Positions 1-329 of a stretch of 329 nucleotides of DNA are shown piece by piece (position 1 is the first letter of the stretch; each line of letters begins with the position of its first letter). The stretch lies in NCBI RefSeq assembly GCF_003334385.1, contig NZ_QOWN01000201.1. The stretch is one strand, 5' to 3'. The notes under the pieces are model-generated. The model was not told where the DNA came from. It was given only the letters and a program-made list of their open reading frames with translations, and made no database searches. The stretch is from Escherichia coli (GTDB lineage Bacteria; Pseudomonadota; Gammaproteobacteria; Enterobacterales; Enterobacteriaceae). Position numbers and translations under genes: made by a program.

Positions 1-159
1 TCTGAAGGTTGTTTTGAAATTGGTGTCACTATCAGTAACCCTGTATTTACTGAAGATGCCATTAACAAGAGAAAACACGAACGGGAGTTATTAAATAAAA
101 TATGCATTCTTTCAATGCTGGCCCGTTTACGTCCGATACAAAAAGGATGTGCACAATGA
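1..159 (+). CDS. 3' portion of a small ORF (52 sense codons plus TGA stop; 5' end outside window); hypothetical protein, possibly a Kil-like prophage early-region peptide (tentative)
   Basis: Frame 1 is open from position 1 to the TGA at 157-159, while frame 3 carries stops (TGA 3, 15, 51; TAA 36, 63, 96) over the same stretch. Conceptual translation: SEGCFEIGVTISNPVFTEDAINKRKHERELLNKICILSMLARLRPIQKGCAQ*. The stop overlaps the downstream start (ATGA), which is typical of real coupled genes. The C-terminus is basic and amphipathic. The Kil-like call rests only on vague recollection of short basic helical Kil peptides and of small genes of this kind sitting beside DUF1482 genes in lambdoid prophages; no alignment was run. 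Confidence 0.55.
   Translation, partial: SEGCFEIGVTISNPVFTEDAINKRKHERELLNKICILSMLARLRPIQKGCAQ
143..147 (+). promoter_or_regulatory. Shine-Dalgarno (AAGGA) for the downstream ORF
   Basis: AAGGA at 143-147 sits 8 nt upstream of the ATG at 156, which is canonical spacing. It lies inside the last codons of the upstream ORF, as expected for coupled genes. Confidence 0.6.
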
Positions 160-329
160 ATACAGCATTTGCACTTGTTCTGACAGTTTTTCTTGTTTCC
201 GGAGAGCCAGTTGATATTGCAGTCAGTGTTCACAGGACAATGCAGGAGTGTGTGACTGCAGCAACCGAACAGAAAATTCCCGGTAACTGTTACCCGGTCG
301 ATAAAGTTATTCACCAGGATAATAACGAA
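156..329 (+). CDS. 5' portion of a DUF1482-family (YebW-like) small protein; continues beyond the 3' end of the window
   Basis: ATG at 156-158 is preceded by AGGA (144-147) with an 8-nt spacer, and frame 3 is open from 99 to 329 with no stop. Translation (58 codons): MNTAFALVLTVFLVSGEPVDIAVSVHRTMQECVTAATEQKIPGNCYPVDKVIHQDNNE. From memory, E. coli YebW (DUF1482) shares the pattern FALVL.V...G...DI.V.V..T...C.......I..G.C.P....I, including both cysteines (QEC and GNCYP here). The family call is recalled, not searched. Confidence 0.8.
   Translation, partial: MNTAFALVLTVFLVSGEPVDIAVSVHRTMQECVTAATEQKIPGNCYPVDKVIHQDNNE
218..260 (+). repeat. Inverted repeat TGCAGTCA (218-225) / TGACTGCA (253-260) with 27-nt spacer; potential mRNA stem-loop
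   Basis: Read directly: the two 8-mers are exact reverse complements. TGCAG occurs three times (218-222, 241-245, 257-261). Lies wholly within the downstream ORF; the large loop makes a stable hairpin uncertain. Confidence 0.35.
282..294. repeat. Perfect 13-bp palindrome GGTAAC-T-GTTACC (imperfectly extended to 279-297)
   Basis: Read directly: 282-287 GGTAAC, 288 T, 289-294 GTTACC are exact reverse complements. The flanks CCC/CGG extend the symmetry with one mismatch per side. It overlaps codons G-N-C-Y-P of the downstream ORF. The symmetry is certain; any function is unknown. Confidence 0.5.

Follow-up and report, generated by a model that had tools for sequence, protein, structure and literature searches.

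The window analyzed here, a stretch of 329 nucleotides of DNA from Escherichia coli, is made up of two overlapping genes on the plus strand (Table 1). Frame 1, read from the first base, gives SEGCFEIGVTISNPVFTEDAINKRKHERELLNKICILSMLARLRPIQKGCAQ and is closed by the TGA at 157-159; it is the 3' part of dicB, the gene for the cell-division inhibitor DicB. Translation of positions 156-329 gives MNTAFALVLTVFLVSGEPVDIAVSVHRTMQECVTAATEQKIPGNCYPVDKVIHQDNNE, the peptide claimed for this segment in the initial annotation, with no stop codon inside the window. In the identical genomic DNA of strain VR50, this second frame runs on for five more codons (IPAGL) before it reaches a stop, so that the complete product has 63 residues, ends in NNEIPAGL, and has a typical length for the family to which it belongs, rather than being unlike its other members. 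The remaining open reading frames in the window are one of 30 residues on the minus strand (62-154) and three of 20-26 residues on the plus strand; each falls within dicB or ydfD or is out of frame with them, and all were discarded as unsupported. A scan of both strands of the window against Rfam at E <= 1 returned no RNA family.

Table 1. Positions of the genes and sequence features in the 329-nucleotide window.
Feature	Position	Strand	Basis
3' part of dicB (codons 11-62 and TGA stop at 157-159), cell-division inhibitor DicB	1-159	+	translation, NCBIfam NF049927, annotation under the match
Shine-Dalgarno-like AAGGA, 8 nt 5' of the ydfD ATG, within the dicB CDS	143-147	+	read from the sequence; putative function
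ydfD codons 1-58 of 63, orthologous to the lysis protein YdfD of K-12 Qin; DUF1482 family	156-329	+	translation, Pfam, identity, annotation
ATGA overlap (ydfD ATG 156-158, dicB TGA 157-159)	156-159	+	sequence
Hydrophobic uncharged N-terminal segment, residues 3-16, TAFALVLTVFLVSG	162-203	+	hydropathy and charge analysis
FALVLTV motif, residues 5-11	168-188	+	family alignment
Cys32 codon TGT	249-251	+	sequence, family alignment
Cys45 codon TGT	288-290	+	sequence, family alignment

We regard it as practically certain that the ORF at 156-329 is ydfD. A megablast search of complete E. coli genomes matched the window in 4001 of 5426 (~74%), and the matches at 100% identity, among them VR50, ABU 83972, and ML35, are always annotated as dicB together with ydfD or "DUF1482 family protein". 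Since many E. coli chromosomes carry the window, letter for letter, as an annotated junction of dicB and ydfD, the ydfD frame is far more than a chance ORF. Individual genomes match the window in up to six places, and 13 of the matching places are on plasmids. The upstream protein, taken at its full length of 62 residues, matched the NCBIfam model NF049927 (CellDivInhibDicB) with E = 1.3e-38 and 130.6 bits (cut-off 100); NCBIfam has no model for YdfD, and DicB was alone in being matched there. For the downstream protein, the 58 residues encoded in the window matched Pfam DUF1482 (PF07358) with E = 1.4e-23 and 83 bits over model positions 1-52 of 57, which confirms the family membership that had been proposed in the initial annotation, and the full protein matched PHROG 1092 with E = 2e-37. 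Compared with K-12 YdfD (b1576), whose RefSeq product name is "lysis protein", 59 of 63 residues are identical (94%, E = 4e-45) and four are substituted (S3T, V6A, M33V, and I57N), while 13 of the 329 nucleotide positions differ between the two alleles (96% identity). Phage mEp460_ev081 encodes a protein identical to the YdfD of the window.

The initial annotation had likened the product to YebW, a label that does not suit it. YebW (b1837) is a chromosomal E. coli protein that shares with YdfD the Pfam family DUF1482, the length of 63 residues, the FALVL N-terminus, and two aligned cysteines, but it has two extra cysteines, only 41% identity over 49 residues, and a gene at the non-prophage locus yebV-yebW-pphA. 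Judged by 94% identity over all 63 residues in the same synteny on the one hand, and by 41% identity at a different locus on the other, the gene in the window is an orthologue of ydfD and a paralogue of yebW. In K-12, pphA lies on the other strand, its end meeting that of yebW (locus L003, 3781-4970). The product of pphA is a phosphatase related to the NinI phosphatase of lambda, a relation that hints that yebW could be the remnant of an old lambdoid prophage.

The family itself is small. Among 1.84 billion proteins, DUF1482 has only 36 representatives at 50% identity; all database relatives of the protein carry PF07358, their length is 62-67 residues, and they come from phages and prophages of Escherichia, Shigella, Klebsiella, Salmonella, and Citrobacter. 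A number of entries in the database, 77-97 residues long, consist of the 63-residue sequence with extra residues at the N-terminus, probably from mis-called starts inside dicB. A profile search of the PDB with the family alignment gave no match at E <= 1. Relative to the 50%-identical homologue in PPompW, dN/dS is ~0.5 with dS near saturation, and close alleles differ by 5 or fewer changes, too small a number for a meaningful ratio; these values were not used as evidence.

The suggestion that the gene lies in an accessory region was borne out by its surroundings. In VR50, the locus is a lambdoid prophage adjoining ompW, with the gene order HTH repressor, ydfA, ydfB, ydfC, dicB, ydfD, exonuclease, excisionase, and integrase. 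The order repressor, ydfABC, dicF, dicB, ydfD, exonuclease VIII, xis, and int is common to VR50, K-12, phage Tritos, and PPompW, and the arrangement of VR50 recurs in phage mEp460_ev081 as well. In K-12, it is found in the cryptic prophage Qin, which has in common with the window the length of YdfD, its cysteine pair and Pfam family, the ATGA overlap between dicB and ydfD, and the downstream exonuclease gene. However, the element hosting the window is apparently a more complete lambdoid prophage, with exonuclease, xis, and int intact by ompW, whereas ydfE and intQ are pseudogenes in Qin. Klebsiella phages and metagenome contigs encode more distant DUF1482 members (36-50% identity), again at this position of the early operon, after the repressor and before an exonuclease VIII gene, a GamL-family gene, or an integrase gene.

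Two signals at the junction bear on how ydfD is translated. Both the AAGGA inside dicB and the ATGA overlap are invariant in K-12 Qin and in phage Tritos, and the CDS coordinates show the four-nucleotide overlap in VR50, K-12, Tritos, and PPompW alike. Taken together, the overlap and the AAGGA element suggest that translation of ydfD may be coupled to that of dicB. Between the DicB allele of the window and that of K-12, six of 62 residues are changed, and three of these changes are clustered at residues 55-57 (LMP to PIQ; nucleotides 134, 138, and 140), just 5' of the invariant ydfD Shine-Dalgarno element. Promoter and terminator motifs around the locus occurred at the level of shuffled sequence. 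Outside the window, 38 nt 3' of the ydfD stop (locus L001, 6385-6398), is a weak hairpin of 5 bp (TGCCA/TGGCA) which, with the T-rich tail behind it, resembles a terminator; it might mark the end of the 1,608-nt ydfABC-dicFB-ydfD transcript (PMC10448788), with the qualification that such motifs occur at chance frequency here.

At the distant loci, a small ORF overlaps or abuts the start of the DUF1482 gene. Its product bears no relation to DicB and falls into PHROGs that have no known function, and in one Klebsiella phage and one metagenome contig the ORF too forms a four-nucleotide overlap of the ATGA type with the DUF1482 gene. The upstream ORFs of these loci (L005, 3891-4192; L012, 3879-4192; L009, 163-557; L007, 1118-1455) encode a MxDFARKPARxQAVR protein of 37-41 residues (PHROG 22279), a 65-residue protein (PHROG 3722), and a product of 47 residues. 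On this comparison of gene orders, the DUF1482 gene may be one half of a conserved two-gene module in which the upstream partner varies.

The view that the family has no established function, which the initial annotation held, is out of date, because YdfD is a published lysis protein with IspG as its proposed target (PMC8835842). Indeed, ydfD, the lysis that it causes, the antagonistic effect of DicB, and the candidate target are all already known. As far as the work of Masuda 2016 is described in PMC8835842, overexpression of YdfD causes lysis of E. coli, cells that co-express DicB or SulA are spared this lysis, from which it follows that lysis requires cell division, and YdfD's C-terminal domain alone retains a reduced killing activity. 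Lu 2022 detected an interaction between YdfD and the MEP-pathway enzyme IspG by pull-down, co-elution in SEC, ITC (Kd 18 uM), and FRET, and mapped the binding to residues 1-28 of YdfD and residues 1-279 of IspG (PMC8835842). In the same study, deletion of even single terminal residues weakened or abolished killing by YdfD, and overexpression of ispG or addition of HMBPP rescued the cells. Other groups have found that induced YdfD is toxic and that ydfD is derepressed upon CRISPR-Cas inactivation. The gene belongs to the DicA-repressed ydfABC-dicF-dicB-ydfD transcript (PMC10448788). Our literature search for DUF1482 or yebW, most of whose results were noise, turned up functional work on no member of the family other than YdfD.

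These observations can be combined into a single account of the gene in the window. In Qin-like lambdoid phages and prophages, ydfD is a gene of the early-left operon (pL-type, repressed by DicA/cI), in which it immediately follows dicB, and its translation is probably coupled to that of dicB through the ATGA overlap. Its 63-residue DUF1482 product, by orthology with K-12 YdfD (94%), would be a toxin that acts from the cytoplasmic side, and dividing cells would lyse whenever YdfD is present in excess over DicB. In molecular terms, YdfD would bind IspG and thereby deplete the isoprenoid (undecaprenyl-phosphate) carrier needed for septal wall synthesis. We hold this account as a whole, the best supported of those considered, to be about an even proposition. 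The step through IspG is equally balanced in our estimate, and the same even chance applies to IspG inhibition as the inferred cause of lysis. The IspG model comes from one paper, and two features of its data weigh against it: the affinity is weak (18 uM), and the rescue relied on HMBPP supplied from outside, a diphosphate that carries charge and has no proven route of uptake (PMC8835842). That all YdfD phenotypes come from overexpression, whereas the natural operon co-expresses dicB, which cancels the lysis, weighs against it as well, as does the minimal effect that deletion of ydfD has on dicBF-mediated lambda resistance. The allele in the window is assumed to behave like that of K-12, with which the published results were obtained, and this can be put as an assumption only, because the two differ by four substitutions and the protein is reportedly sensitive to changes of single terminal residues (PMC8835842).

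The N-terminus of YdfD had been annotated as hydrophobic and as a possible signal peptide or membrane anchor. The hydrophobicity was confirmed; the signal or anchor part of the claim is weakly contradicted. The longest uncharged run comprises the 14 residues 3-16 and is followed by G-E-P. As had been noted, there is neither a basic n-region nor a lipobox, the first basic residue being R27, with no lysine or arginine before it, and the first cysteine being residue 32. In an alignment of 19 diverse members, the FALVLTV stretch at residues 5-11 is the best-conserved part of the family, with a mean column identity of 0.80 compared to 0.52-0.55 elsewhere; L7, G16, and C32 are invariant, and V8 and C45 occur in at least 90% of the members. 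Such conservation is unlike that of a generic targeting sequence and would fit a specific binding or structural role; it is also consistent with the N-terminus serving as a binding element. AlphaFold2, run with the family alignment, gave a model with a mean pLDDT of 77 and a pTM of 0.56 (pLDDT 80-90 over residues 1-50), in which a strand at 5-12 is followed by a strand at 18-26, a helix at 29-38 that carries C32, a strand at 44-47 that carries C45, and a low-confidence tail. A single-pass anchor calls for an uninterrupted hydrophobic helix of ~19 or more residues, whereas the run here has 14 residues and is modelled as a strand rather than a helix; over a 19-residue window, the summed Hessa-scale value is +6.2, which is unfavorable for membrane insertion. 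Because of the short run, the conservation of FALVLTV, the predicted strand, the soluble fusion proteins, and the cytoplasmic partner, a reading of the N-terminus as a signal peptide or membrane anchor is not favored, although peripheral membrane association or export is still conceivable. As a conserved β-strand, FALVLTV sits poorly with the usual description of this segment as a transmembrane domain.

The form of that reading implied by the initial annotation, in which a Sec signal peptide or signal anchor at the N-terminus brings the C-terminal part to the periplasm and a disulfide joins Cys32 to Cys45 there, seems to us very improbable. A hydrophobic core of 12-14 residues is typical of h-regions, V14-S15-G16 before E17 formally fits the -3/-1 rule, the hydrophobic run has an acidic flank (E17 and D20), and both cysteines are conserved. 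Yet the segment lacks a basic n-region, its sequence is conserved in a manner unlike signal peptides, and in the model it forms strand 1 of the folded domain. Furthermore, the C-terminal domain alone keeps some killing activity, according to the description of Masuda 2016 in PMC8835842, and N-terminal GST and MBP fusions bind the cytoplasmic IspG, with FRET observed between YdfD-CFP and IspG-YFP in vivo (PMC8835842). The cysteines themselves were correctly annotated as a pair at codons 32 and 45, and they are conserved, C32 being invariant and C45 present in 18 of the 19 aligned members. Lu 2022 found that cysteine mutants of YdfD still bind IspG, which speaks against a disulfide between the two proteins as what holds them together (PMC8835842). 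The pair could still serve in an internal disulfide or a metal site.

A membrane-associated protein could also kill without IspG. The N-terminus would then tether YdfD to the inner membrane, and the C-terminal domain would disturb an essential envelope process at the division site. Such a toxin we consider a doubtful but real possibility, and we are similarly reserved about the candidate processes, which would be septal peptidoglycan synthesis, lipid II handling, or membrane integrity. Its N-terminus is strongly hydrophobic, with a Kyte-Doolittle value of 2.95 over 11 residues. The Masuda abstract is said to propose that YdfD associates with the cytoplasmic membrane and that its essential target is not known. 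The strict dependence of lysis on division, as seen with blocks of septal wall synthesis (Masuda 2016, to the extent described in PMC8835842), would agree with such a toxin, and so would the facts that the binding to IspG is weak and that IspG was chosen by plausibility out of dozens of pull-down proteins (PMC8835842). On the other hand, an uncharged run of 14 residues ahead of G-E-P is short for a membrane-spanning helix, and AlphaFold2 gives the segment as a strand of a β-hairpin with pLDDT 80-88. GST-, MBP-, and His-tagged YdfD behaved as soluble proteins, and the rescue of cells by ispG overexpression likewise speaks for the cytoplasmic IspG account (PMC8835842).

Whether lysis is what the phage uses YdfD for is a separate matter. 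Tritos (locus L014, 41937-43492 and 29083-29459) is a complete Qin-like phage that encodes, in addition to dicF, dicB, and ydfD in its early-left operon, a separate late cassette of holin S, endolysin, and a spanin-like DUF2514 gene. This cassette lies behind Q and 13 kb from ydfD, so ydfD is not the canonical lysis device of this phage, and lysis may not necessarily be the natural role of YdfD. Tritos also encodes hokD and several cold-shock genes. Taken to its limit, this line of thought makes lysis an artefact of overexpression: the late holin and endolysin would lyse the host, and YdfD would be an early host-modulation factor made along with a division inhibitor, which might, for example, tune the supply of envelope precursors or act in exclusion or abortive infection. 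In all loci examined, the DUF1482 gene is found early-left between the repressor and exonuclease/xis/int and never in a late lysis cassette. The probably coupled small upstream ORF is, in E. coli, that of DicB, which neutralizes the lysis (PMC8835842) and which has, according to the literature, a proven function in exclusion. However, the published deletion of ydfD hardly affected the lambda resistance conferred by the operon, PADLOC defence models gave no family at E <= 0.1 for either YdfD or DicB, and IspG as the molecular target is compatible with an artefact, too. We rate this alternative as decidedly unlikely.

A bolder synthesis, which we think fairly unlikely, would have YdfD be a soluble β-β-α-β mini-domain in which the conserved hydrophobic strand 1 serves as a protein-binding surface. 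On this view, YdfD would not be dedicated to lysis, nor would it be a membrane protein. The DUF1482 gene would be paired in a conserved module with a small upstream gene that varies, encoding DicB in E. coli and unrelated products of 37-65 residues elsewhere, and that would restrain or time the toxicity; with this toxin/modulator pair, lambdoid phages would reprogram the envelope-precursor metabolism of the host early in induction.

In practical terms, about three in four complete E. coli genomes carry this sequence, which represents the ordinary ydfD of Qin-like prophages. If the inhibition of IspG is true, YdfD would be a natural peptide inhibitor of a pathway that is an antibacterial target, although the biochemistry behind the assignment of IspG as the target is thin. 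In the intact phage, ydfD is probably co-translated with its own antidote, dicB, if the coupling read from the junction holds, and the holin-endolysin cassette is separate.

Within the account of ydfD as an early-operon toxin that lyses dividing cells, two groups of known systems invite comparison. The first consists of protein E of phiX174 (target MraY), A2 of Qbeta (MurA), and LysM of phage M (MurJ), which, like YdfD, are small phage proteins and which lyse growing or dividing cells, as YdfD is proposed to do, by blocking a biosynthetic step and not by degrading the wall, an analogy drawn in PMC8835842. These proteins have no sequence or fold relation to YdfD, and the small ssDNA or ssRNA phages that encode them have no other means of lysis, whereas ydfD belongs to the early operon of a tailed dsDNA phage with a holin-endolysin cassette of its own, and its proposed target, IspG, acts further upstream, in isoprenoid synthesis. 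The second group is closer in its genetic setting. The kil gene of lambda and kilR of Rac are small, early-left, repressor-controlled host-killing genes, and together with dicB of Qin they resemble ydfD in operon position, repressor control, small size, and toxicity upon derepression. Their products differ from YdfD in effect, for they block FtsZ and cause filamentation, whereas YdfD causes lysis and is antagonized by such blocks.
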